Sequence record: SRR31156797_967
DNA length: 20,000 nucleotides
Direction: 5' to 3' (one strand)
The notes under the pieces are model-generated. The model made no database searches, was not told the DNA's origin, and was given only the letters and a program-made list of their open reading frames with translations. Every line of letters starts with the position of its first letter. Positions within the stretch are counted from its first letter, which is position 1. This document shows positions 1 through 20,000 of this stretch, piece by piece. The translations under genes were made by a program, and so were the position numbers.

Positions 1-1180
1 AATTTCCCATACCTAAATCAGCTAATTGTTCTAGTATTTTTACTTTTAGCTGTTCACTTGATTCATGACGAAGCTGAGATATTTGTTTTGCTAGATTTAA
101 TGAATCATCGTACAGCTTGTCTCTTTTGTGCTCTAACTCATCCAGAATTATTTCATGTTCGTCCAATACAAGGAGTCTTTCCTCAATTTGTTTTTTGTAG
201 TCTATTATTTCATTTACATCGGCACCGTATTTTCTAGTAAGCTTCTTAACCTGAGCAAGTCTATTTTCGATCTGTTCTAAATCATTTAAATCAAAATCGA
301 ACTCTCGCTCCAGGTCTCGAATTTCATCGGCAATATCATCAAGCTCCATTGATGTTTCTTCCATTCTTTTTGCCAGCACCTGATATTTTTTGTCCATACC
401 TGCAAGTGATGTGATATTATCTAGTGCAATTTGGATTAAAGATATGATAGATGAATCATCTGCAGTACCGGCAAAAGCATAGTGCGCATTATCAATACAG
501 TTCTTGATATCTTCAGAGTTAATGAGTACTTCCCGCTGCTCACGAAGCAGAGTATCTTCATCAGGAATAAGGGCAGCTTCCTCAATTTCTTTTACCTGAA
601 AAGTATACATCTCTATCTGCCTTTGCCGCTCTAATTCGTTTAGCTGCATGGCTGATATTTCATCTTTAGTTTTTTGGTATTCACTGTATTTTTGATTATA
701 AAGATTTTTTAATTGAGATAATCTTTCACCGCAGTAACCGTCAACCACCACAATATGATTTGCTTCATCTAGTAGTGACTGATGCTGGTGCTGCCCGTGA
801 ATATCAACTAATGAATTTGTTATAGCTTTAAGCTGGGATAGGGTAGACACATGTCCATTAATACGACATACATTACGTCCATTAGCAGACAGCTCCCTTC
901 TGACCACCAGTTCATTGTCATCAGTTTCGAAATATCCCTTTAGAAGTGCTTTAGCCAAAGGTGACTTTGATACATCGAAAATTGCTTCGACAATTGCTTT
1001 GTCTGCACCTGTTCTGATAAGGTTTTTGTCAGCCCGTTCGCCAAGAGCCAAATTAACTGAATCAATGACTATGGATTTACCTGCACCTGTTTCACCTGTT
1101 AATATATTTAAACCTTCGCCTAATTCTATCTTTGCTGATTCAATAACAGCAACATTTTTTATAGACAAATATTGTAGCAT
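1..1180 (-). CDS. recN: DNA repair protein RecN (5' part; runs off window start)
   Basis: Read manually from ATG at 1180: MLQYLSIKNVAVIES...LNILTGETGAGKSIVIDS (Walker A), later LVDIHGQHQHQSLL. SD AAGGGG upstream. Canonical position after argR. Confidence 0.96.
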   Translation of the reverse strand, partial: MLQYLSIKNVAVIESAKIELGEGLNILTGETGAGKSIVIDSVNLALGERADKNLIRTGADKAIVEAIFDVSKSPLAKALLKGYFETDDNELVVRRELSANGRNVCRINGHVSTLSQLKAITNSLVDIHGQHQHQSLLDEANHIVVVDGYCGERLSQLKNLYNQKYSEYQKTKDEISAMQLNELERQRQIEMYTFQVKEIEEAALIPDEDTLLREQREVLINSEDIKNCIDNAHYAFAGTADDSSIISLIQIALDNITSLAGMDKKYQVLAKRMEETSMELDDIADEIRDLEREFDFDLNDLEQIENRLAQVKKLTRKYGADVNEIIDYKKQIEERLLVLDEHEIILDELEHKRDKLYDDSLNLAKQISQLRHESSEQLKVKILEQLADLGMGN

Positions 1181-1231: not shown

Positions 1232-1261
1232 ATTATATCATTTATGAGATTAAATTGCCAA
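1232..1261 (-). promoter_or_regulatory. Putative internal sigma-A promoter for recN
   Basis: Minus strand TTGGCA (1261-1256), 18 nt, TATAAT (1237-1232) with TGn extension; overlaps the end of argR. Confidence 0.5.
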
Positions 1262-1694
1262 GCCTTGCGACCATTTCATCACCGTCTACATCTTCGGCAA
1301 TAATCAGCATTATGCAGTTATCGCCTGCAATTGTGCCTAGAATATCATCCCACTGCAGTGAATCAATAGTTTCTGCTGCAGCGTTGGCACTGCCAGATAG
1401 GGTATTAATAATTATTATATTTTTTGAGCGTTTTATCGATAGTACGGATTCGTAGAAAATACGTAGTTTTCTAGCTGACAGCTTGTCCACAGCCTTGTCA
1501 CTGGTTGCGTACTTGTGGTTGCCTTTTCCATCACCTATTTTGATTAGCTGAAGTTCATTAATGTCTCGGGATATAGTTGCCTGAGTTACATCAAAGCCCA
1601 GCTGGCGCATTTCATTAGCAAGGTCAAACTGAGTGTGAATATCCATCTTTTCAATTGTTTCAAGTATTGCCATTTGTCGTTGATTCTTTGTCAT
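1242..1694 (-). CDS. argR: Arginine repressor ArgR/AhrC
   Basis: VTQATISRDI winged-helix motif and GTIAGDN arginine-binding motif. Start placed at ATG 1694 (MTKNQRQ) behind SD AAAGGA rather than at GTG 1709. Confidence 0.95.
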   Translation of the reverse strand: MTKNQRQMAILETIEKMDIHTQFDLANEMRQLGFDVTQATISRDINELQLIKIGDGKGNHKYATSDKAVDKLSARKLRIFYESVLSIKRSKNIIIINTLSGSANAAAETIDSLQWDDILGTIAGDNCIMLIIAEDVDGDEMVARLGNLIS

Positions 1695-1715
1695 AGTCTT
1701 TCCTTTCACTGTGAG

Positions 1716-2585
1716 CTATTTGATGCTCCAGCTGATAATTTTTTCTCTAAATCTATTAAAATAATCATCGTAACCAATTCTGATAAATTTGGCAGAGAAT
1801 CCTGCCTTTGTTATGCAAACATTGCCTTTCATAGGGACAGGCAGCAGGTGCTGACCGTCGATAGTTATAATCACGTCCTGCAGAAGGTCACTGGCTAGTA
1901 CTTTGATGCATACATCATCGGATACTATCATAGGACGTGTATGAAGAGAATGAGAGCATACAGGGGTTATTAGTATGCAGTTCACGCCAGGTAATACAAT
2001 TGGACCGCCTGCTGACAGGGAATAGGCTGTAGAGCCGATGGGGCTTGCAACAAGTACACCATCAGCGTCAAAGCTATCTAGCAGCTGTTCGTTGACATAA
2101 ACATCCAGCTTGATTATTCTGGCGTGTCCATGTCTTGATATATTAAAATCATTTACTGCCAACAAATCACTTTGAACAATATTGTCATTTTCATCGTGTA
2201 CACTAGCACTAAGAATAATTCTCTCTTCAATGGTAAATTCATTAGCTTTTATTTTATCCACCATATTATCTATATTGCGTTCATCCACTTCAGCAAGAAA
2301 GCCCTTGCGTCCGGCATTAATTCCCACCGTTGGGATACCAGATTTTGCAGAGCTTCTAAGAACAGAAAGTATTGTGCCGTCTCCTCCTATTGTAAATATA
2401 GCGGAGCACTTTTTGCAGAAATTATTTAATTTTTCGCTATCTTTTGTATCATAATTATATACCTCATAACTTAGTGAAGCTTTATCCAAAGCACAAGACA
2501 AGGCAGACAGTATGCTTTCTACTTTTTTCTTTTGCCTTAATGCTACTATTCCGAATGGTTTGTTTTTATCAATATTTCTATCCAT
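1716..2585 (-). CDS. nadK: NAD(+) kinase
   Basis: GGDGT, GINAGRKGFL, ND, DGVLVASPIGSTAYSLSAGGP motifs; synteny tlyA-nadK-argR-recN. Confidence 0.95.
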   Translation of the reverse strand: MDRNIDKNKPFGIVALRQKKKVESILSALSCALDKASLSYEVYNYDTKDSEKLNNFCKKCSAIFTIGGDGTILSVLRSSAKSGIPTVGINAGRKGFLAEVDERNIDNMVDKIKANEFTIEERIILSASVHDENDNIVQSDLLAVNDFNISRHGHARIIKLDVYVNEQLLDSFDADGVLVASPIGSTAYSLSAGGPIVLPGVNCILITPVCSHSLHTRPMIVSDDVCIKVLASDLLQDVIITIDGQHLLPVPMKGNVCITKAGFSAKFIRIGYDDYFNRFREKIISWSIK

Positions 2586-2665: not shown

Positions 2666-3475
2666 TTACTGTTTCTTTTCTTTTAATTTGCTATGGGCAT
2701 TATCAACTACCTGATTAATATTTATATTTGACATGGTATCTTTCTTTGAGCAGTATAGCACGAATTCTATATTTCCTTTAGGACCTGTTATTGGGCTAAA
2801 GTCAAGACCAATTGGGTTAAATGAAGTGTTCTCAGTTACAAAGCTAGTAATTTTGCTGATAGTCTCAATGTGTATTTCTTTCTTACGGATTACACCGCCT
2901 TTACCAACCTGCTCTCGTCCGGCTTCAAACTGTGGCTTTATTAGTACGGCAATCTCAGAAACAGAACTAGTGCAGACATCAATTGCTGGGAGTAATTTTG
3001 TCAATGAAATAAAACTAGCATCACATACAGCCAAATCGCAGACTTCGCCTAGTTTTTCTGGAGTCAGATATCTGGCATTTGTACGTTCAAATACAATCAC
3101 TCTATCATCATTGCGCAGTTTCCAGCTAAGCTGTCCATAGCCTACATCTACGCTGTACACTTTAGCTGCACCATTTTGCAGCAAACAATCGGTGAATCCG
3201 CCTGTTGATGCGCCTACATCAAGCACAACTTTTCCTTTTGCATCTAGGTTAAACACTTTTAGAGCTTTTTCTAATTTGTAGCCACCTCGACTTACATACG
3301 GCATTTGCTCCTTGATAACTACTTTATCATTTGTAGTATCTACCGCATATGAAGCTTTATTAATAACACGTTCATTAACTAGTATCTGACCAGCCATTAT
3401 TAATTTTTTTGCCATTTCTCTGGACTGTGTATAACCATTCTCGCTGAGATATTGGTCAAGACGGATTTTCTTCAT
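2666..3475 (-). CDS. tlyA: TlyA family RNA methyltransferase (S4 + FtsJ-like)
   Basis: N-terminal RLD S4 domain; YVSRGGYKL, DVGASTGGFTD, VDVGYGQL, LIKPQFEAG, SPITGPKGNIE motifs. Confidence 0.95.
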   Translation of the reverse strand: MKKIRLDQYLSENGYTQSREMAKKLIMAGQILVNERVINKASYAVDTTNDKVVIKEQMPYVSRGGYKLEKALKVFNLDAKGKVVLDVGASTGGFTDCLLQNGAAKVYSVDVGYGQLSWKLRNDDRVIVFERTNARYLTPEKLGEVCDLAVCDASFISLTKLLPAIDVCTSSVSEIAVLIKPQFEAGREQVGKGGVIRKKEIHIETISKITSFVTENTSFNPIGLDFSPITGPKGNIEFVLYCSKKDTMSNININQVVDNAHSKLKEKKQ

Positions 3476-3495: not shown

Positions 3496-5412
3496 TTACT
3501 TTGCTCGTACTCCAACATCAATTAATTTTGGTACATTGTCTTTTGCAGACGTTTTTACAATCTTTTTTATAACATTGCTTATGCTGTTTGAATCCAGGTA
3601 GTGACATCCATAGAGATATTCTTTATTACCATGAGCTACAAACACATCATCATAACCGAGGCAGATAGTCTCAGCATTTTTGCCCATTAAGTTTAATGTT
3701 TCCAGTATTGCAGAGCCAAATCCACCCTGAAGGAGATTGTCCTCTACGGTAATTATTGTATCATATGTATCTGATATTTTCTCCAAAGTATCCATGTCAA
3801 TAGGCTTAATAGATCGTGCATTGATTACATCTACGAAATTATACATATTATCCTTTTTGATTGCATCCATACATTTTACAAGCATCGAAGAATTGGAAAG
3901 GAGGACAATTCTTTTTTGCTTAGCATTTGTGCAGTACTGCCACTTAAAGATATCGTCCTGCGGATTGTTGTATATATTGTTTTTCGGAAGTTGATTCCCC
4001 AGAAGAACTGCTGTTGGTCTACATGAATTCAATGCTGTCTCAATGGTATTTTTTGCTTCGGCTTCGGTGGCTGGTATTAATACCTCCAGATTAGGTATAT
4101 GCCTGAGGAATGAAATATCATATATACCGTGGTGTGTTTCACCATCATTGCCAACAATTCCGCTATTATACACTATGAAATTAACAGGAAGATTCTGCAG
4201 ACAAACATCATGGACAATCTGGTCATATGATCTTTGTAGGAATGTAGAATACACACAAAAGCATGGTTTCATACCGCCAGCTGCCAGTCCTGCTGCCATT
4301 GTTACTGCGTGACCCTCGGCGATTCCTACATCAAAAAAACGCTTAGGGTGATTTATCTTATAGGATTCCAGCCCGCATCCGCTCTCCATAGCAGCAGTAA
4401 TAACGCAGATTCTTGAGTCCTTTTTTGTCATGTCGGATAATTTTTTACTGACCTCAATTGGCAGATTATATTTGCTTTTAACCTTTTTTTCGCCAGTTTC
4501 AATATCAAATGCTGAAGTTGAGTGATACTTGTCCGGAGACTCGCTGGCAAACTTACATCCTTTTCCTTTTTTTGTTTTAACATGGATAATAACTGGATCA
4601 TCAATTTCCTTGCACTGATTAAGAATTGTAATAAGTTCTTCAATGTCATGACCATCTAGTATACCATAATACTTGAATCCCATTTCTTCAAACAATAGAT
4701 TGTTAACAAACATATATCTGAATGTATCTTTTATTTTATCTAAAAGCTTAAATATAGGTTTACCAATTAGTGGAATTGCTTTTAACAATGAAGAGAAGAG
4801 AGTTTTAGTCTTTACATAGTAATTCTTTGTACGAAGATTAGACAGATACTTACTCATAGCTCCGACATTCTTACTGATGGACATTTCATTGTCGTTAATT
4901 ATAACTATCAGTTTTTCTTTTTGATGTCCTACATCATTAATTGCTTCCCATACCATGCCGCCAGTTAATGCGCCATCACCGATTATAGCAACTACTCTAT
5001 CATCCCTGCCTTGCAGCCGCTGGCTTCTGGCTAGTCCTACAGCAGCAGATATTGATGTGGAAGAGTGCCCGGTGTTAAAGCAGTCGCATTCGCTTTCCTC
5101 TCTTTTTGGGAAACCAGATAATCCATCCTGCTGTCTGATTGTATGGAATTGATCTTTTCTACCTGTTATTATTTTGTGAGTATAGCACTGATGTCCTACA
5201 TCAAAGACTATGGAATCCTTTGGTACATCAAAAACTTTATGGAGTGCCAGAGTAATCTCTACCATTCCTAAGTTTGATGCCAGATGTCCGCCTGTTTCTG
5301 ATAAGGTGCTGATTATTTTATTTCTAATTTCACCTGATAGTTGATTCAGTTCGTCTATATTCAGTTTCTTGATATCTTGTGAATTATTTATGTTATCTAA
5401 TATATTATTCAT
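3496..5412 (-). CDS. dxs: 1-deoxy-D-xylulose-5-phosphate synthase (atypical acceptor site)
   Basis: GGHLASNLG, FDVGHQ, GHSSTS, GDGA...NDN ThDP motif, VGIAEGHA, YSTFLQR, DGETHHG. The DRAG and RYPR motifs are replaced (see findings). Confidence 0.92.
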   Translation of the reverse strand: MNNILDNINNSQDIKKLNIDELNQLSGEIRNKIISTLSETGGHLASNLGMVEITLALHKVFDVPKDSIVFDVGHQCYTHKIITGRKDQFHTIRQQDGLSGFPKREESECDCFNTGHSSTSISAAVGLARSQRLQGRDDRVVAIIGDGALTGGMVWEAINDVGHQKEKLIVIINDNEMSISKNVGAMSKYLSNLRTKNYYVKTKTLFSSLLKAIPLIGKPIFKLLDKIKDTFRYMFVNNLLFEEMGFKYYGILDGHDIEELITILNQCKEIDDPVIIHVKTKKGKGCKFASESPDKYHSTSAFDIETGEKKVKSKYNLPIEVSKKLSDMTKKDSRICVITAAMESGCGLESYKINHPKRFFDVGIAEGHAVTMAAGLAAGGMKPCFCVYSTFLQRSYDQIVHDVCLQNLPVNFIVYNSGIVGNDGETHHGIYDISFLRHIPNLEVLIPATEAEAKNTIETALNSCRPTAVLLGNQLPKNNIYNNPQDDIFKWQYCTNAKQKRIVLLSNSSMLVKCMDAIKKDNMYNFVDVINARSIKPIDMDTLEKISDTYDTIITVEDNLLQGGFGSAILETLNLMGKNAETICLGYDDVFVAHGNKEYLYGCHYLDSNSISNVIKKIVKTSAKDNVPKLIDVGVRAK

Positions 5413-5968
5413 TATCTTTGCTCCATATATTTGTAAACAGATGTATAAATCTGCCTACAGCTAATACTATATTTTTGTTGCCTTTCATTGCCAGCAATTT
5501 TCCTAATGCTTTACCTGATACAGTAATACCTGCTATGATGGCACTGGCTATTACCGAAATGGTTAATGGCTTTAGCGTCTTTGACATTGAAATCAGAGTA
5601 GTTACAATAATAGCACCTGCAGCACCTGAAATGATTCCGCAGATATCGCCTATTACATCATTACATATGTTGGTCACTATTTCGGCTCGCTGCAATAAAA
5701 ACAGCCCTTCCTTTGCTCCTTTAATACGCTTAGAACTCATCGCTACAAATGGAGTTGGATTAGCTGTTGCTATGGCTACACCGATTGTATCAAAAAACAC
5801 GCCTATAAGTATAAATAAAATAAGTGCTAAAAATGCTAAAGGTAATGATAAATTTCTTAGGGAAACCTCAGCTAAGAAGCTCATCACTGTGGCTAGCGCC
5901 AGAGTGATAGCAAATATTTTTACTATCCATACCCAAGGGGGTTTGGATGCTGCATTTTTCTGCTTCAA
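5405..5968 (-). CDS. oapA: OLE-associated membrane protein OapA (DUF21/CNNM-like)
   Basis: About 4 hydrophobic segments; FDTIGVAIATA and CNDVIGDICGIISGA motifs; lies between OLE RNA and dxs. Start is likely TTG 5968 (GGAG 6 nt upstream), alternatively GTG 5980. Overlaps the dxs start by 8 nt. Confidence 0.88.
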   Translation of the reverse strand: MKQKNAASKPPWVWIVKIFAITLALATVMSFLAEVSLRNLSLPLAFLALILFILIGVFFDTIGVAIATANPTPFVAMSSKRIKGAKEGLFLLQRAEIVTNICNDVIGDICGIISGAAGAIIVTTLISMSKTLKPLTISVIASAIIAGITVSGKALGKLLAMKGNKNIVLAVGRFIHLFTNIWSKDNE

Positions 5969-6186
5969 AATTATCTCCACTTGAGTTAACCCATTATTAT
6001 AATGGGAGAAATATTAGGTTTTACCCATATGTACAAATAATATGGAATTACTATACATATTATTAAAACATAAAATCGCAAAACCACGAATTCAAACGTA
6101 ATTAACTTTATAATTGTAAGCTGTCTACACTATATTACATTAAAGAACGTAAAAAGGTAAACTCAATATATTTCAAATAAATTTAT

Positions 6187-6777
6187 GGTGGCAGCATAGT
6201 GGATAAACCTTGCGGCATCAGGTCCAGCAGGCTTTCCCTGCAGAGTACTTCCCGTCACCGGTAAAGTAGTTTCCATTTAAACTTTGCACCAAATTGTTGC
6301 CAAAAATTGGGGCTGGATTACCACTTAGACCACACTATAATCCCCACTATGCCAAATAAATTTCAGTCTAGGAGCTTTCCTCGACAGTTTCACATATCTC
6401 TAGCCTCTATTGCAATATTGGTTTCATTAGGCAATCACTAAATGCACTAGGTACCATTTGTACAGATAGTGTGTTCCGTCTAATCCACCAACCCCACTCA
6501 AGGCAGGCTACACTGCACACAGCTTTCATTCACCGCAATACAGGTTTAATCCCGGCAAGTAATGTTTTATCAAATAACGCACCACTCGTTCAGGTCTCCA
6601 CGAGAGCTGGGTCAAACGCCCGCATGCCGTTGCGGATCGCCCTTCTCTCTTATCTCCCAGCACAAACCCACGACTGGGCGTCGTAAGCAAGCACAAGAAG
6701 CTTCATCGATATGCCCTTTGACGGATTTTTAGCCCCGCCTTCAAGGTATGTGACGCTGACTAGAATACTGCACCACC
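6187..6777 (-). ncRNA. ole: OLE RNA (ornate, large, extremophilic RNA), ~590 nt
   Basis: GC-richer non-coding block in an AT-rich background. Minus-strand 5' end GGTGGTGCAGTATTCTAGTCAG matches my recollection of the OLE 5' consensus. The 5' GGTGG can pair with the 3' CCACC (6187-6191). Internal stem GCATAGTGG/CCACTATGC (~6194/~6343). Length and the downstream oapA-dxs-tlyA-nadK-argR-recN order are diagnostic. Confidence 0.93.
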
Positions 6778-6784
6778 GAAGTAG

Positions 6785-6814
6785 ATTATATCATAAAGAT
6801 ACTGCTTATGTAAA
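6785..6814 (-). promoter_or_regulatory. Sigma-A promoter of ole
   Basis: TTTACA (6814-6809), 18 nt, TATAAT (6790-6785) with TGn extension; 7 nt upstream of the predicted RNA 5' end. Confidence 0.75.
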
Positions 6815-6922: not shown

Positions 6923-8116
6923 ATGACTATGCAACCCACTTTTGCTTCACAATTCATTCAGTACCTACTTCTAACATTTCAAATATTAGCGATATTTATA
7001 TTACCACAAGTTTTCGTAATTTTGTCAAAAAGAAATAAAATATTTAAATTTTTATCACCTGTATTATTGTGTTATCTTGCAGGAATAATATTCGCAAATA
7101 TACCAATACCTGCACTATGGGACAAAAATCTTTCAATGACAATTTCTGAAATCAGTGTACCTATTGCAATAGCACTTATATTATTTTCAGCTGATCTTGT
7201 CAAGTGGTCTCATTTGATAAAAATGACAAAATCTTTTTTTCTTGTACTGGTATCAGCAACCATTGCTACATCTGTTATGGCAATGATTTATTCTGGTTGG
7301 GTTGATGAAGGGTGGAAAATAGCAGGAATGCTTACCGGATGCTATACAGGAGGAACACCAAATTTGATGGCTGTAGGTACGAGCCTAAAAGTACCCAAAC
7401 CAACAATAGCTCTTGTAAATATGTGTGATATGCTGTGTGGCGGAGTGTACTTTCTATTGATATCATCATTTTTAATAAAAGTATATAGAAGATTCCTTCC
7501 GAAATATGAAAGCTCTGATTTCGACAAATTAGGTCATACAAAAATTATGGCACTTGAAACTATCTTTGATGATGGTGTATTACAGGGGTGGAAGAATATT
7601 GGTTTTGCACTTTTGTTTGCTATTCTTGCAACTGGTGTATCTGTAGGTATAGCATTACTATTTACCGGAGAAATGAATACACTTATTATTATACTTTCTG
7701 TGACAACTATTTCAATTGCTCTGTCCTTCTGGAAGAAATTGAAGAGTTTAAGGGGAACTAATGCAATGGGACAGTATGCAGTATATATTTTCTCCATGGC
7801 TATAGGCGGAGCTGTTGATATTTCTAAGTTCTTTGAATCTTCACCCTTGCTGCTAGGGTATACAGCAAGTATTATGATGAGCGGAATATTGCTTCATTTT
7901 ATACTCTGTAAGATATTCAAAGTAGACGCAGATACAGCTATTATTACTTCGATGGCAGGTGTATATGGACCAGCATTTATTGCACCTGTAGCAGAAGCTA
8001 TGAATAATAAAGAGATTGTAGTAAGTGGTCTTTTAACAGGTATTGTAGGATATGCAGTGGGTAATTACCTAGGTATAGCTATCGCATATCTAACAAAAAT
8101 GTTATTTTATATATAA
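6923..8116 (+). CDS. DUF819-like polytopic membrane protein (putative transporter)
   Basis: 397 aa with about 10-11 hydrophobic segments; YTGGTPN and C-terminal GIVGYAVGNYLG motifs. Start could be ATG 6929. Confidence 0.75.
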   Translation: MTMQPTFASQFIQYLLLTFQILAIFILPQVFVILSKRNKIFKFLSPVLLCYLAGIIFANIPIPALWDKNLSMTISEISVPIAIALILFSADLVKWSHLIKMTKSFFLVLVSATIATSVMAMIYSGWVDEGWKIAGMLTGCYTGGTPNLMAVGTSLKVPKPTIALVNMCDMLCGGVYFLLISSFLIKVYRRFLPKYESSDFDKLGHTKIMALETIFDDGVLQGWKNIGFALLFAILATGVSVGIALLFTGEMNTLIIILSVTTISIALSFWKKLKSLRGTNAMGQYAVYIFSMAIGGAVDISKFFESSPLLLGYTASIMMSGILLHFILCKIFKVDADTAIITSMAGVYGPAFIAPVAEAMNNKEIVVSGLLTGIVGYAVGNYLGIAIAYLTKMLFYI

Positions 8117-8187: not shown

Positions 8188-8619
8188 TTATTCATTTGAT
8201 AGGTTAATTGCATAGTTTCTATAGTTAAGATCATCTCTTAAGTCAAATCCAAGGCTTTCCCAGAATCCATTTCCTAATTCATTATCTTTGTAAACGACCA
8301 AAGCAGTTTTGTGGATGCCTTCTTTTTCCAAAGCAAGAAGTGATTCATTTACTAGTGCTTTACCAATGCCCTTTTTCCTATCATCAATACTTACAGCAGC
8401 ATGATAGATATACCCTCTGCGACCATCATGTCCGCATAGTATTGTGCCGTTTATCCTGCCGTCAGTTTCTGATACAAAGCATGTAGTTGGATTGCGTCTT
8501 AGAAATTTATCAATACCTTCTAGTGAATCATCTAAGGTACGCATCCCCATACCTTTAGTGTTATACCATAGTTGATATACTTTGTTATAATCTTCTATTT
8601 TCATTAAGCGAATCGACAT
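8188..8619 (-). CDS. GNAT family N-acetyltransferase (YpeA-like)
   Basis: GHDGRRGYIYH, RKKGIG acetyl-CoA motif A, N..G..FWESLGF; SD AAGGGGG. Confidence 0.88.
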   Translation of the reverse strand: MSIRLMKIEDYNKVYQLWYNTKGMGMRTLDDSLEGIDKFLRRNPTTCFVSETDGRINGTILCGHDGRRGYIYHAAVSIDDRKKGIGKALVNESLLALEKEGIHKTALVVYKDNELGNGFWESLGFDLRDDLNYRNYAINLSNE

Positions 8620-8661: not shown

Positions 8662-10008
8662 TTATTTCGGCAGTGATATCTGAAAACTTGCACCACCTTG
8701 CGGAAGATTGCCCAAAACAAGTTGCCCTTTGTGCTTTACAATAATCTCTTTCACTATATATAATCCCAGTCCGCTGCCATTTGCCTTCTCGTATGACATA
8801 CCTGACTGAAGTATATTCATTAGTTCTTTATCAAATCCTTTACCATTGTCGGAAATTGTAATTGATATGTCATTATAATTCTCACAAAGCTCAATGTCAA
8901 TTCTGTCTTTAGTATATTTGATGCAATTAGATAGAATATTATTAAGTGCAATAAAAATCTTCTCATCATCAATCATTACTTTGCTTATTTTTTTGGGTTG
9001 ATAGTAGATATCAATATCATTAAGTATTGCTATGCTTTCTATGCTTTTAATTGCATTCTCTATTACAATAGAGATATCGTACTTAGCAAATTTTAATACT
9101 TCTATATCGCTTTCCAGCTTGCTTAGGAGAATTATATTCTCGGCATACTCCTTTATACGAAGGCTTTCGCTCATAATTATATCAAGGGGCTCATCGGTAT
9201 CTTTGAACACACCTGTTTTTATACCCTCTGCATAACCATAGATAGCAGTAAGAGGTGTTTTCAGTTCATGAGATATATTTCTGTATAGTTTTTCTTTTTC
9301 CCTGTCATGTGCCTGTAGGGAGTTAGCCAAAGTATTTATAGATTCAGATAATATCTGGATTTCGTCATTAGTATCTGCAATGTATTTTTCACTAAAGTCG
9401 CGGGATGCATATTTCTCAGTCAGTTTAGTTAGTTTTTTAATTGGTTTTGTAATGCGATCTGATAATATCAGCGTTATTCCAATCGAAATTACTGATAAAA
9501 CGATTAAGCAGATTACCAAAGCAGCATAGAATCTTTTCGTGACATTTTGAATACTTTTTGTTGATATTAAAGATATTGTTACATATTGAAGATTATTAGT
9601 ACTATCTTCTCTGATAGTACTGATAGAACATAGGTATTCATCATTATTAATATTTACCGTAATTATTGCTTTTCTTTCCTCTAGGAATTTACTTAGCAGA
9701 GTACTAATATCAATATCCATTTCTAAATCACTATCGCTGTTATACATTAGCTCCAAGCCATTGCTGGTATCATTCAAGGAATAGACCAGATTTATGCTGT
9801 CGGAGAGGACAGAATACAGCATTGGCTCATCAATTCCTCTTTTGTAGAATTTATTTGCTAGTTGATTTTCTACAACCAGTTGTTTCTTTATATTTTTATA
9901 AGTATAGGATTTGTATATTGCAGATATAACAAAACAAAGCAATGATAACGATAGTACCAATATCAGTGCATTTGCCAGAGTGAATTTCTTTGAGATAGAA
10001 TTATTCAT
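8662..10008 (-). CDS. Sensor histidine kinase (2 TM, HAMP, HisKA, HATPase)
   Basis: ITKPIKKL...DEI..L HAMP, NISHELKTPL H-box, NILSNCIKY N-box, DNGKG and GSGLGL G-boxes. Start likely ATG 10008 (SD AGGTG), next to the regulator stop. Confidence 0.92.
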   Translation of the reverse strand: MNNSISKKFTLANALILVLSLSLLCFVISAIYKSYTYKNIKKQLVVENQLANKFYKRGIDEPMLYSVLSDSINLVYSLNDTSNGLELMYNSDSDLEMDIDISTLLSKFLEERKAIITVNINNDEYLCSISTIREDSTNNLQYVTISLISTKSIQNVTKRFYAALVICLIVLSVISIGITLILSDRITKPIKKLTKLTEKYASRDFSEKYIADTNDEIQILSESINTLANSLQAHDREKEKLYRNISHELKTPLTAIYGYAEGIKTGVFKDTDEPLDIIMSESLRIKEYAENIILLSKLESDIEVLKFAKYDISIVIENAIKSIESIAILNDIDIYYQPKKISKVMIDDEKIFIALNNILSNCIKYTKDRIDIELCENYNDISITISDNGKGFDKELMNILQSGMSYEKANGSGLGLYIVKEIIVKHKGQLVLGNLPQGGASFQISLPK

Positions 10009-10009
10009 A

Positions 10010-10693
10010 TTATTCACCTATTTTATATCCATAACCCCAGACGGTTTGTATCTGACATTGTGAATTAATTGTAAGCATTTTCTTACGTAGGCGTTTAATC
10101 ATATGGTCTACCTGCCTTGTGTCGCCATAGTATTCATACCCCCAAATTCTATCTATTATCTGCTCTCTGGAGAATGCCCTGTTTACATTTTCCAGGAATA
10201 ATAAAAGCAGGTTGAATTCTTTGGCTGTAGTAGGCACAGGTGTATCATTTATTGTTATAGTCCTATTTGCTTTATTAAGAACTAAGTCCAGATACGAAAT
10301 ACTATCGTCTGAGTTGTTATTACTTTCATATGAATTTAGTCGTCTAAATGTGTTTTTTATCTTTGCAAGCAGTTCACGAAATGATATTGGCTTTGATATG
10401 TAATCGTCGCTTCCTAATTCCAGTCCAAGTACACGATCAATTTCGTCATTGTGCGCACTAATCATGAAAATTGGTATCATGCTAGACTTTCTTATTTCCC
10501 TGCATAAATCATAGCCGGACATTTGGGGCATTACAATATCTGTGATTATCATATCACAAGGGGATGAATTATATGCATCTAATAGTAGCTGCCCATTCTT
10601 AAAGGTTTTTGCCCTGTAACCAGCGTTCTCAATATGGCTTTTTATTAATTTGCAAATGTTTTCATCATCATCGGCGATATATATCATTTTCAT
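10010..10693 (-). CDS. OmpR/PhoB family response regulator
   Basis: ADDD, TDIVMP (phospho-acceptor Asp), GSDDYISKP receiver motifs; winged-helix SREQI..IWG, VDHMIKRLRKK, TVWGYGY. Confidence 0.95.
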   Translation of the reverse strand: MKMIYIADDDENICKLIKSHIENAGYRAKTFKNGQLLLDAYNSSPCDMIITDIVMPQMSGYDLCREIRKSSMIPIFMISAHNDEIDRVLGLELGSDDYISKPISFRELLAKIKNTFRRLNSYESNNNSDDSISYLDLVLNKANRTITINDTPVPTTAKEFNLLLLFLENVNRAFSREQIIDRIWGYEYYGDTRQVDHMIKRLRKKMLTINSQCQIQTVWGYGYKIGE

Positions 10694-10786: not shown

Positions 10787-11569
10787 TTAGTTACTATTTC
10801 CTTTTCCTGAATCATTTCCGCCAGATTGCTTGTTCTGTAATCCATCTCCTAGCTCCTGCAGGTATTCTTTATATTCTTCCAAAGTCATTCCTAATTCAGC
10901 AGCTTTTTCTTCCATTTCGGATTTTATCTCCTCAACTTTTTCCTGCCTTTCTTGTCTTTGTTCAGCCAAATATTCTTTGTATTCATCTATGGTCATGCCT
11001 AGCTCCTCGGCTTTGGCTTCGAATTCAGCCTTGCGGTTTTGCATCTGCTGACGATACTGCTCCAAAGTCATACCATTTTCTTCAGCTCTTTGTTGAAATT
11101 CCTGCCTGCGCTGCTGTAGGTAATCAATATATTCATCTGTAGTCATGCCATGTTCAGCTGCTCTTTGCTGGAATTGCTCTTGTTTGCTTTTTAGATAAGC
11201 CTTGTATTCATCTGTAGTCATTCCCAGTGCTTCAGCATTTTCCTGAAATCTTTGTTTTTTCTCTTTTAATGATGCTTTGTATTCTTCCAAGGTCATACCT
11301 TGTTCTGCTGCTTTTTCTTCTAGCTTTGCTTTTCTATTCTTTAAGTACTCAATGTACTCATCAATAGTCATACCTTGCTCAGCTGCTTTTGTCTCGAGGT
11401 TATCTTTCTTTTCATTTAGATAATCTATAAATTCTTCAACTGTCATTCCCTTTGCCTGAGCTTTTTCTTCTAGCTTAACCAGCAGATTATCGTTTTCCAC
11501 AGCAAATGCTGACATAGAACCAAAGACTATAAATGTAAGTATTAAGATCATTATAATTGTTTTTTTCAT
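10787..11569 (-). CDS. Secreted helical repeat protein (8 x ~25-aa A.E.GMT.EEY..YL units)
   Basis: ATG 11569 with SD AAGGAG; signal peptide MKKTIIMILILTFIVFGSMSAFA (A-x-A site); tandem repeats visible in the translation. Confidence 0.88.
   Translation of the reverse strand: MKKTIIMILILTFIVFGSMSAFAVENDNLLVKLEEKAQAKGMTVEEFIDYLNEKKDNLETKAAEQGMTIDEYIEYLKNRKAKLEEKAAEQGMTLEEYKASLKEKKQRFQENAEALGMTTDEYKAYLKSKQEQFQQRAAEHGMTTDEYIDYLQQRRQEFQQRAEENGMTLEQYRQQMQNRKAEFEAKAEELGMTIDEYKEYLAEQRQERQEKVEEIKSEMEEKAAELGMTLEEYKEYLQELGDGLQNKQSGGNDSGKGNSN
10841..11473 (-). repeat. Intragenic 75-bp degenerate tandem repeat, 8 units (the seventh has an 11-aa extension)
   Basis: Invariant GMT recurs every 25 codons; units 4 and 5 share the DNA stretch TATTCATCTGTAGTCAT. 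Confidence 0.9.
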
Positions 11570-11597
11570 TGTTTTGCTCCTTTTACTTGATGGTATT

Positions 11598-11652
11598 AGC
11601 ATAATCTAAACCAATGTTGAAACTGTACTTATTTTATGGATGAATTGTGGCA
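11598..11652 (-). promoter_or_regulatory. Putative response-regulator-dependent promoter (direct repeat + -10)
   Basis: Plus-strand TTATGG (11634) and TTGTGG (11645), 11 bp apart; minus-strand -10-like TATGCT at 11603-11598; no consensus -35. Confidence 0.55.

Positions 11653-17390: not shown

Positions 17391-20000
<2,610 letters not shown>

Follow-up and report, generated by a model that had tools for sequence, protein, structure and literature searches.

DXP synthase (DXS, or DXPS) is a much-studied antibacterial target with an unusual mechanism, in which the binding of D-glyceraldehyde 3-phosphate (GAP) triggers the decarboxylation of lactyl-ThDP, and two of its arginines (R420 and R478 in E. 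coli numbering) are treated as the anchor of this substrate. The locus described here, within a 20,000-nucleotide stretch of DNA (sequence record SRR31156797_967, hereafter the window), raises the question of what such an enzyme does when asparagine occupies both positions. The first-pass annotation, made from the letters of the window, had proposed that the paired loss reflects a changed acceptor or a carboligase repurposed within the canonical dxs slot. The gene and its neighbours (positions are those of the window) are arranged as follows:

6172..6792, minus strand: full-length OLE RNA (Rfam RF01071, 482.6 bits against a gathering score of 50, model positions 1-616 of 616)
5405..5980, minus strand: candidate oapA, encoding a 191-aa hydrophobic membrane protein, between OLE and dxs (named by position and from PMC10898510)
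3496..5412, minus strand: dxs (P0001), a stop-free open reading frame of 638 aa, encoding a DXS-family ThDP enzyme of the YN[ST] clade described below
2666..3475, minus strand: tlyA-like gene for an S4 and FtsJ rRNA methyltransferase, downstream of dxs (Pfam FtsJ 1.8e-47, S4 4.2e-11)
1716..2585, minus strand: NAD kinase (Pfam NAD_kinase and NAD_kinase_C)
1242..1709, minus strand: arginine repressor ArgR (Pfam Arg_repressor and Arg_repressor_C)
2..1180, minus strand: recN-like gene with its 3' end beyond the window (named from its N-terminal sequence and operon position)

This order (OLE-oapA-dxs-tlyA-nadK-argR-recN) is the usual one for the dxs slot, in which dxs often adjoins ole and oapA (PMC10898510), and all three elements of the cluster (a full-length OLE RNA, a small membrane protein gene and an adjacent dxs) were recovered; OLE RNA was likewise located upstream of dxs in six of six relatives' loci. 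The candidate oapA product gave no Pfam or NCBIfam match and contains a DxxxD stretch (DVIGD). In keeping with the translational coupling annotated from the sequence, the two genes overlap, the candidate oapA stop (TAA, 5407-5405) and the dxs ATG (5412-5410) sharing an 8-nt overlap, with a GGAG situated 8 nt upstream of the ATG.

The assignment of the product to the DXS family is consistent across methods. It scored 687.5 bits against the curated equivalog profile TIGR00204 (dxs; cut-off 465.95; profile positions 3-614 of 616) and contains the three DXS domains (Pfam DXP_synthase_N, Transket_pyr and Transketolase_C), while its best transketolase score (193.1 bits, NF004559) fell far below the cut-off of 488. 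An AF2 model (pLDDT 87, pTM 0.86) had the D. radiodurans DXPS as its best Foldseek match (6ouv_A, TM 0.86/0.92, 38% identity), and the top matches listed were all DXPS (TM up to 0.86/0.94). Furthermore, the gene branches inside the DXS of related bacteria and, as expected of an ortholog, is represented by a single DXS match in each of six relatives' genomes. For the comparisons that follow we used a YN[ST] clade of 26 full-length members (51-97% identical, uncultured Clostridia) and 176 canonical sequences, and the segments of dxs on which the argument turns are:

4972..4980, minus strand: GDG145-147, ThDP-binding motif (G145 and D146 shared by all 26 clade members and all 176 canonical sequences; G147 invariant in the 77-sequence alignment A1)
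4888-4896, minus strand: NDN173-175, the Asn part of the ThDP motif, present in the product and kept by all 26 clade members
4576..4578, minus strand: K279, a basic residue acquired by the clade, closing a domain-I strand on its C-terminal side, candidate compensating charge
4375..4377, minus strand: C346 in GCGL, Thr or Ser in canonical DXS, signature of the whole Arg-less lineage
4162..4170, minus strand: Y415-N416-S417 (codons TAT AAT AGC) in place of canonical D-R-A, N416 corresponding to E. coli R420 and D. radiodurans R423
4132..4146, minus strand: D423-G-E-T-H427, the retained equivalents of E. coli D427 and H431 (alignments, codon map)
3991..4005, minus strand: L470-L471-G472-N473-Q474 in place of canonical R-Y-P-R/K-G, N473 corresponding to E. 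coli R478 and D. radiodurans R480

The translation reads ...LPVNFIVYNSGIVGNDGETHHG... and ...RPTAVLLGNQ..., in agreement with the text of the first-pass annotation, whose span (3994-4170) runs from N473 through Y415. The correspondence of both asparagines to the canonical arginines held in the alignments. A phmmer alignment with E. coli DXS (2o1s_A), ungapped, placed query residues 388/394/416/423/427 opposite chain residues 392/398/420/427/431, and the alignment to 2o1x_A paired N416 with D. radiodurans R423. In a 219-sequence MAFFT alignment, ungapped in this region, N473 paired with the second Arg of RYPRG (D. radiodurans R480), which is the equivalent of E. coli R478 (bioRxiv 10.1101/2025.03.03.641193). 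A HMMER pairwise alignment with 2o1x_A opens a 4-residue gap and sets K477, not N473, opposite R480; K477 was rejected as a compensator, because the lysine is unconserved (the ten further proteins of subclade A have A/S/T/V/E/Q) and MAFFT leaves no gap there. Among the canonical sequences of the 219-sequence alignment, D and R occupy 415/416 in 176 of 176 (motif D-R-[AGSC]), position 470 is R in 175 of 176 and position 473 is R in 142 and K in 34, so that the second-site motif reads R-[YF]-P-[RK]-G, against LLGNQ in the window's enzyme. The role of R420 and R478 in binding the GAP phosphate, which the annotation had taken as established, is documented in PMC5851014, PMC9068908 and bioRxiv 10.1101/2025.03.03.641193; in M. 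tuberculosis DXPS a phosphate-like density contacts Tyr387, Arg415, His426 and Lys473 (PMC9068908). Of the corresponding E. coli ligands (Y392, R420, H431 and R478), the window's enzyme keeps the first and third as Y388 and H427, two of the four phosphate-contacting residues of the M. tuberculosis structure, and has N416 and N473 in place of the others. As a separate observation, these four ligands are substrate-binding residues and do not belong to the criteria that define the TIGR00204 family model.

Across the 26 clade members the first site is almost uniform (415: Y in 25, F in one; 416: N in all; 417: S in 21, T in five), and at the second site position 470 is L in 24 and C in two, with K in 12, N in ten and S in four at position 473. 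The paired loss that had been proposed therefore stands for the window, where both arginines are replaced, but is less uniform in the clade, 12 of whose 26 members carry Lys at the R478 position, Asn or Ser being found in the window's subclade and in two small ones. The catalytic core was retained, as annotated: H43, H74, GDG145-147, E366, Y388, R394, D423 and H427 are kept in 26 of 26 (H43, E366, Y388, R394, D423 and H427 being the equivalents of E. coli H49, E370, Y392, R398, D427 and H431), as are 89 of the 98 columns with at least 97% conservation in the 176 canonical sequences. The mean pairwise identity of the clade is only 61% and its invariant columns number only 172 of 638, and the codons of Y415-N416-S417 vary synonymously among seven genes (TAT/TAC, AAT/AAC, AGC/TCA). 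Judged by these alignments, the replacement residues are fixed by selection; YN[ST] marks a conserved clade under purifying selection, which excludes sequencing error and relaxed selection as their source. An artefact of sequencing or assembly, or a pseudogene, has a negligible probability, given an intact frame without stops over 638 aa, the recurrence of the same residues in 26 independent protein clusters (several sources) and six other genomes, and the high score against the curated family profile. A search for cultured, named carriers of the His or Asn variants returned only MAGs labelled 'Clostridia', 'Clostridiales' or 'Eubacteriales bacterium', and no natural DXS variants without these arginines were found in the literature searched (subscription-only papers lay outside its scope).

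The YN clade is monophyletic with a support of 100 (98-row FastTree and 48-row IQ-TREE, the latter built without the trait columns) and in both trees groups with 13 His/Ser variants (support 95) within the Clostridia DXS; its stem and terminal branches are of a length not unusual for the tree. By this placement the window's dxs descends vertically from the DXS of Clostridia. In the wider Clostridia lineage around the clade the R420 position is occupied by His or Ser, and among sister clades His in place of R420, together with Lys at 478, is a common combination that arose several times. The sister variants of uncultured Clostridia (S/T-H-S/T/C and C-S-S motifs) and the D-H-A/G type of Defluviitaleaceae resemble the YN clade in having no Arg at R420; like it, the 13 His/Ser variants have also lost the Arg that opens RYPRG and carry C346 (Cys in 26 of 26 YN and 13 of 13 variant sequences, against 157 T, 18 S and one C among 176 canonical ones), but differ from the window's enzyme by His (12 of 13) and by Lys or Arg at 478 (13 of 13), where the latter has Asn in both cases. 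Each of these sister-type DXS is the only DXS match in its own genome, Dxr was present in all five such genomes checked, and no description of either type was found in the literature searched. A natural Lys at the R478 position also occurs in M. tuberculosis DXPS (Lys473; 7a9g, 7a9h), as in YN subclade B, and that enzyme is functional with a normal KM for GAP (PMC9068908); it keeps the R420 equivalent (Arg415), in contrast to the window's enzyme with Asn at both positions. On a 472-sequence tree Arg at 416 was lost at least 11 times, and in an independent-pairs test non-Arg 416 tended to go with non-Arg 473 (3.9 versus 0.0 pairs) and, in the same direction, with the loss of R470 and with C346, none of the three sign tests being significant (median p 0.125, 0.5 and 0.25). 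We take the charges to have been given up in steps: an ancestor common to the YN and sister clades exchanged the Asp-Arg pair and the Arg that begins RYPRG but kept Lys at 478 (D-R to S/T-H, R to C/L, T346 to C), His then became Asn in the YN clade, and in the window's subclade the Lys at 478 finally disappeared too. To judge from the residues, His/Lys, Asn/Lys and Asn/Asn look like graded stages of a single function.

The metabolic setting was assessed in the genomes of six relatives with the same enzyme type (G001, G002, G019, G015, G017 and G008), which stand in for that of the window; their DXS are 52-67% identical to the window's and their completeness is unreported. In each of these genomes (of unreported completeness) the only DXS-like match found was of this same type, the other matches being transketolase-like proteins (25-31% identical), and two of the dxs genes are carried by single contigs (3.07 and 3.59 Mb). 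Dxr exceeded its cut-off in five of the six, the sixth having a Dxr split across two contig ends; IspD, IspE, IspF, IspG and IspH were over curated cut-offs in five of five genomes, and the mevalonate markers (HMG-CoA synthase and mevalonate kinase) in none of five. The presence of Dxr and the Isp enzymes together with the lack of mevalonate markers means that a source of DXP is needed, and the YN-type DXS is the only candidate seen. These results lend no support to the earlier reading of a changed acceptor or repurposed carboligase. In its fuller form that reading would have the enzyme use a non-phosphorylated aldehyde (e.g. D-glyceraldehyde) to make 1-deoxy-D-xylulose or another acyloin, which would reach DXP through a kinase or be put to another use. 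It draws on the lack of both cationic phosphate ligands in the window's subclade and on conserved basic residues of which the clade has, on balance, lost several (192, 448 and 470 besides 416, as well as 473 in part of its members), and a less anionic ligand would fit the losses at 192, 448 and 470 as well as a rebuilt pocket does. It also draws on the title of PDB 9kpq ('ThDP-dependent enzyme belonging to the DXPS-like subfamily'), from which it follows that DXS-like enzymes with other roles may exist; this structure has the DXS fold (TM 0.82/0.89, 32% identity to the model) and is only distant kin of the window's enzyme (365 bits by sequence), and no relevant paper on this entry or on such 'DXPS-like' enzymes was found in the literature searched, which left aside subscription-only papers. 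Besides the genomic evidence, the fact that the gene in the canonical operon slot is an ortholog and not a paralogue speaks against it, as do the Lys kept at 478 in half of the clade and the His with Lys of the sister clades, and we regard a changed acceptor as unlikely.

The cost of losing the first arginine has been measured in D. radiodurans, where R423A has a kcat of 1.7 versus 7.9 per second (22% of wild type) and a KM for GAP that rises from 0.05 to 12 mM (PMC5851014, Table 3), leaving a kcat/KM at 0.09% of the wild type, a roughly 1000-fold cost. This KM approximates that of the wild type for unphosphorylated glyceraldehyde (14 mM; PMC5851014), so that the loss of the Arg removes the advantage conferred by the phosphate, a point in favour of the changed acceptor. 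The E. coli variant R420A is called extremely inefficient, and R478A required GAP to be held at 3 mM, not 50 µM (bioRxiv 10.1101/2025.03.03.641193). Given the kinetics of R423A and R420A, a clade enzyme without compensation should be poor with GAP. The replacements might be mere losses of affinity, tolerated by a slow-growing anaerobe (with high GAP or low isoprenoid demand) and involving no new binding mode. The share of kcat that R423A retains is in keeping with this, as is the variability in the clade of the equivalent of E. coli Y288 (Y in ten, A in seven, C in three, and others), a residue called critical in bioRxiv 10.1101/2025.10.24.684457; the repeated losses of Arg at 416 indicate that nature does not absolutely require this position. 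The replacements are, however, specific and fixed (Y25/F1, N26/26, S/T), unlike the variability expected of neutral loss, their codons change synonymously while the amino acids are conserved, and the branches are of ordinary length; we hold a merely weakened enzyme to be quite improbable.

Taken together, these observations make it likely that the window's dxs encodes an orthologous DXP synthase that works, its pocket for the GAP phosphate having been rebuilt with largely uncharged residues. It shares with canonical DXPS (E. coli 2o1s; D. radiodurans 2o1x and 6ouv) the three-domain fold, the ThDP motif, the catalytic residues listed above, the operon slot and (as checked in relatives) the place in the MEP pathway, and differs in the change of D419-R420 to Y-N and of RYPRG (with Arg478) to L-L-G-N-Q, in the Cys that replaces Thr/Ser of the GTGL loop, and in the gain of K279. 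The predicted reaction would be the ThDP-dependent condensation of pyruvate with D-glyceraldehyde 3-phosphate, the product feeding Dxr and the later steps of the MEP pathway. As uncharged residues now stand in for both phosphate-holding arginines, the substrate would be bound in a way that has not yet been studied: we infer that neutral hydrogen-bond donors (Y388, Y415, N416, S417, H427, N473 and Q474) may hold the phosphate, with possible assistance from a bound cation or from Lys279, which is specific to the clade. Position 279 is K in 23 and R in three of the 26 clade members, is basic in only 5% of canonical sequences (which have I, V or L there), and ends a strand (274-279) assigned by DSSP on the AF2 model. 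A non-Arg ligand at the R423 position is workable, since its equivalent in yeast transketolase (His469) hydrogen-bonds the acceptor phosphate (PMC5851014); that enzyme has the homologous ThDP fold, from which the window's enzyme is set apart by its DXS-specific N-terminal domain and by Asn instead of this His. Compared with the Arg-bearing enzymes, this one probably binds GAP less tightly or in a different geometry.

A more radical outcome, that the window's subclade (with N416 and N473) gave up electrostatic recognition of the GAP phosphate altogether, appears to us rather doubtful. It could have come about by a pocket relying on hydrogen bonds only or on a cation (the same seven residues, possibly with K279), in which case the GAP-triggered, 'ligand-gated' decarboxylation special to DXPS would be altered, or by an unphosphorylated acceptor, with entry into the MEP pathway through 1-deoxy-D-xylulose and a kinase; in both cases the mechanism would be one so far undescribed for a natural DXPS. 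An enzyme with Asn at both positions as the sole DXS of its hosts would mean that evolution has found another solution to the anchoring of GAP, as the graded series from R/R through H/K and N/K to N/N would likewise indicate, and this series offers ready-made intermediates for the study of rebuilt phosphate recognition and gating. GAP-competitive or bisubstrate inhibitors aimed at the Arg pair would not work universally. A family score used on its own for annotation conceals such active-site variants.

Translation and alignment confirmed the residues that the first-pass annotation had reported at both arginine sites of the window's dxs product (P0001, 638 aa), which reads VYNSGIVGNDGETHHG and PTAVLLGNQ. 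An ungapped alignment to 2o1s_A placed residues 388, 394, 416, 423 and 427 opposite E. coli Y392, R398, R420, D427 and H431, and N416 fell on R423 of the D. radiodurans enzyme. N473 corresponds, at an ungapped site of a 219-sequence MAFFT alignment, to the second arginine of RYPRG, i.e. D. radiodurans R480, the equivalent of E. coli R478 (bioRxiv 10.1101/2025.03.03.641193); a HMMER pairwise alignment paired K477 with R480 by way of a 4-residue gap, and lysine is not conserved at 477 in the ten nearest relatives. By every family measure the protein is a DXS: it scores 687.5 bits against TIGR00204 (cut-off 465.95), carries all three DXS domains, and its AF2 model (pLDDT 87, pTM 0.86) has only DXPS among its best structural matches (top 6ouv_A, TM 0.86/0.92). 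A DXS fold with 32% identity to the model is also found in PDB 9kpq_A ('A ThDP-dependent enzyme belonging to the DXPS-like subfamily', released 2025-08-20), for which our search of open-access papers and bioRxiv returned no accompanying paper.

The premise that both arginines anchor the phosphate of D-glyceraldehyde 3-phosphate (GAP) is sound, since the cited mutagenesis and structure reports agree on it. In D. radiodurans, R423A is reported to raise KM(GAP) from 0.05 to 12 mM (close to the wild-type KM for glyceraldehyde, 14 mM) and to lower kcat from 7.9 to 1.7 per second, leaving 0.09% of wild-type kcat/KM, while R423K retains 7% (PMC5851014). In M. tuberculosis DXPS, Tyr387, Arg415, His426 and Lys473 are described as contacting phosphate-like density, Lys473 being a natural, functional substitute for Arg478 (PMC9068908). 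EcR420 and EcR478 are likewise named as D-GAP binding residues, R420A turnover being termed 'extremely inefficient' and R478A requiring GAP to be held at 3 mM, not 50 µM (bioRxiv 10.1101/2025.03.03.641193).

The gene lies in a run of seven elements sharing minus-strand orientation:

6172-6792, minus strand, full-length OLE RNA (Rfam RF01071, 482.6 bits)
5405-5980, minus strand, ORF occupying the oapA position; its membrane-protein product (191 aa) includes the DxxxD stretch DVIGD
3496-5412, minus strand, dxs (638 aa, P0001; ORF and family searches)
2666-3475, minus strand, tlyA-like S4/FtsJ methyltransferase (domain search)
1716-2585, minus strand, NAD kinase (domain search)
1242-1709, minus strand, argR (domain search)
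end of the run, minus strand, recN-like gene extending past the window edge

As dxs is reported to be often directly adjacent to ole and oapA (PMC10898510), this gene order puts it where OLE-bearing Bacillota usually have dxs. The proposed canonical slot thus holds, as does an overlap with oapA: the OLE RNA lies 5' of the two genes, and the candidate oapA stop and dxs ATG overlap by 8 nt (with GGAG 8 nt upstream). An OLE RNA also precedes the gene at 6/6 loci of relatives with the same motif. Upstream of the OLE RNA the window holds neither ispA nor xseAB; a DUF819 membrane protein lies there on the opposite strand (6923-8116). Beside a GNAT acetyltransferase gene (8188-8619) are genes for a HAMP/HisKA histidine kinase and an OmpR-type response regulator (8662-10693, minus strand, 8-nt overlap). 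A 271-aa ORF (10787-11602, minus strand) belongs to no clear family; its Pfam matches are numerous but weak and below threshold (DUF7267, NikA-like, MerR-DNA-bind, others), and it may encode a repetitive or coiled-coil protein. Another pyruvate-using ThDP enzyme, pyruvate:ferredoxin oxidoreductase, is represented by its N-terminal 867 aa (17397-20000, plus strand, extending past the window edge; POR_N, PFOR_II, POR, EKR and 4Fe-4S domains).

A protein search over 5.8 billion sequences recovered, among the best 120 matches, Y/F-N-S/T at positions 415-417 in P0002-P0026 (52-71% identical) and in the fragment P0049, the other 94 having D-R-A/G/S and R-Y-P-R/K-G. The full-length sequences form a clade of 26 from uncultured Clostridia (hereafter YN type).

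Residues in canonical DXS (n=176) and in the clade (n=26), 219-sequence alignment
Position 415: canonical D 176; clade Y 25, F 1
Position 416: canonical R 176; clade N 26
Position 470: canonical R 175; clade L 24, C 2
Position 473: canonical R 142, K 34; clade K 12, N 10, S 4

Pairwise identity within the clade averages 61%, with only 172 of 638 columns invariant. Canonical DXS has 98 columns with conservation of 97% or more; the clade keeps 89 of these and every catalytic residue checked (26/26). The motif codons of seven genes vary synonymously (Tyr TAT/TAC, Asn AAT/AAC, Ser AGC/TCA, several Leu codons). A motif fixed in so diverged a group, together with these codon changes and kept residues, excludes sequencing error, pseudogenisation and relaxed selection, and rules out substitutions unique to one assembly. 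The motif thus marks a conserved clade under selection, and the window gene is a real active-site variant of DXS maintained by selection.

The 26 sequences were monophyletic (support 100) in a 98-row FastTree and joined, at support 95, 13 DXS of related genomes in which this motif reads S/T-H-S/T/C or C-S-S; a 48-row IQ-TREE with both motif regions removed agreed (12/12 at support 100, 19 rows at support 95, nested in Clostridia DXS). The whole Arg-less lineage has lost the Asp-Arg pair, has C or L for the first arginine of RYPRG, and has Cys for the GTGL-loop Thr/Ser (window C346, 4375-4377; 26/26 and 13/13, all 39, versus 1/176 canonical). Position 470 is also Cys in 7/13 His variants, giving a Cys/His/Cys trio with the C346 position. 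As the sister clades carry His at 416 (12/13) and Lys or Arg at 473 (13/13), the 416/473 pair forms a stepwise series from R/R through H/K and N/K (subclade B) to N/N or N/S in subclades A, to which the window gene belongs, and C. Precedents exist for the His/Lys sister enzymes: in yeast transketolase the R423 counterpart is the phosphate ligand His469 (PMC5851014), and M. tuberculosis DXPS has Lys473; for the Asn/Asn combination we found none in open-access papers and bioRxiv.

Loss of the 416 arginine is recurrent: of the top 150 representatives at 50% identity, 149 were readable at this site and 13 of these lack it (DH 5, SH 4, GH 1, YN 1, CN 1, PN 1), and a 472-row tree requires at least 11 state changes. 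Position 473 of that set is Lys 49, Asn 10, Ser 3 and Arg 3 in 65 Arg-less sequences, and Arg 292 and Lys 110 in 407 Arg-bearing ones; a phylogenetically independent test of this association was not significant (median p 0.125). Independent R-to-H changes with Asp kept (D-H-A/G/S) occur in L014, L015 and L021 (Defluviitaleaceae MAGs) and in P0169, P0273, P0284, P0308, P0375 and P0385, all with Lys at the R478 position. In a wider set of DXS from uncultured Clostridia, relatives of genome G001 (loci L090, L092, L096-L102, L104-L106, L109; proteins P0130-P0142, P0178), S/T-H-S/T/C/A or C-S-S replaces D-R-A and C/L-Y-P-K-G replaces R-Y-P-R-G, each being the sole DXS match of its genome; we found no paper describing them.

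Pathway and copy number were assessed in relatives' genomes. The YN-type gene was the sole DXS-like match in 6/6 (G001, G002, G019, G015, G017, G008), with no second DXS found, other matches being transketolase-like proteins (25-31% identical); two of the genes each sit on one contig (3.07 and 3.59 Mb). Dxr exceeded its curated cut-off in 5/6 (split over two contig ends in G019), IspG, IspH, IspF, IspE and IspD exceeded theirs in 5/5, and HMG-CoA synthase and mevalonate kinase did so in 0/5. Dxr was likewise present in 5/5 genomes with a His/Ser-variant DXS. IspD and IspF matches share one open frame of 387-405 aa (G001:C8:165690-166826; equivalents in G002, G015, G008 and G017), hence these relatives have a fused IspDF. 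Hosts of YN-type genes therefore depend on a supply of DXP, and no candidate maker other than the Arg-less enzyme was seen, which argues against the repurposed carboligase of the first-pass annotation and leaves its interpretation partly supported. We consider the window enzyme most likely still a DXP synthase.

Of the four phosphate ligands, Y388 and H427 remain. In the AF2 secondary structure, Y388, Y415/N416 and L470-N473 lie at the C-terminal ends of three domain II strands (382-388, 411-415, 467-470; block pLDDT 84-97), as expected for residues lining one pocket, and in a DXP synthase the phosphate would now be held by the neutral donors Y388, Y415, N416, S417, H427, N473 and Q474. The only basic residue gained clade-wide, K279 (K 23, R 3 of 26, versus 5% basic in canonical DXS, with I/V/L there), ends a domain-I strand running into the invariant T-x-K-G-x-G segment and could supply a compensating charge. 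The clade has also lost conserved basic residues (192 and 448), and the counterpart of E. coli Y288, a residue described as critical to substrate binding (bioRxiv 10.1101/2025.10.24.684457), is C286 in the window (4555-4557; canonical Y 166/176, clade Y10/A7/C3 and others). The acceptor site is thus broadly remodelled, as the gating loops may be, and these changes keep a shifted acceptor alive, albeit as an improbable reading given the sole DXS match beside Dxr and Isp enzymes; a merely weakened enzyme, the other main rival, we regard as slightly less probable still. The variant is of moderate interest for DXPS enzymology and inhibitor design. Two positions past C286, an aromatic residue (Y/F) at 288 is conserved in 25/26 clade members.
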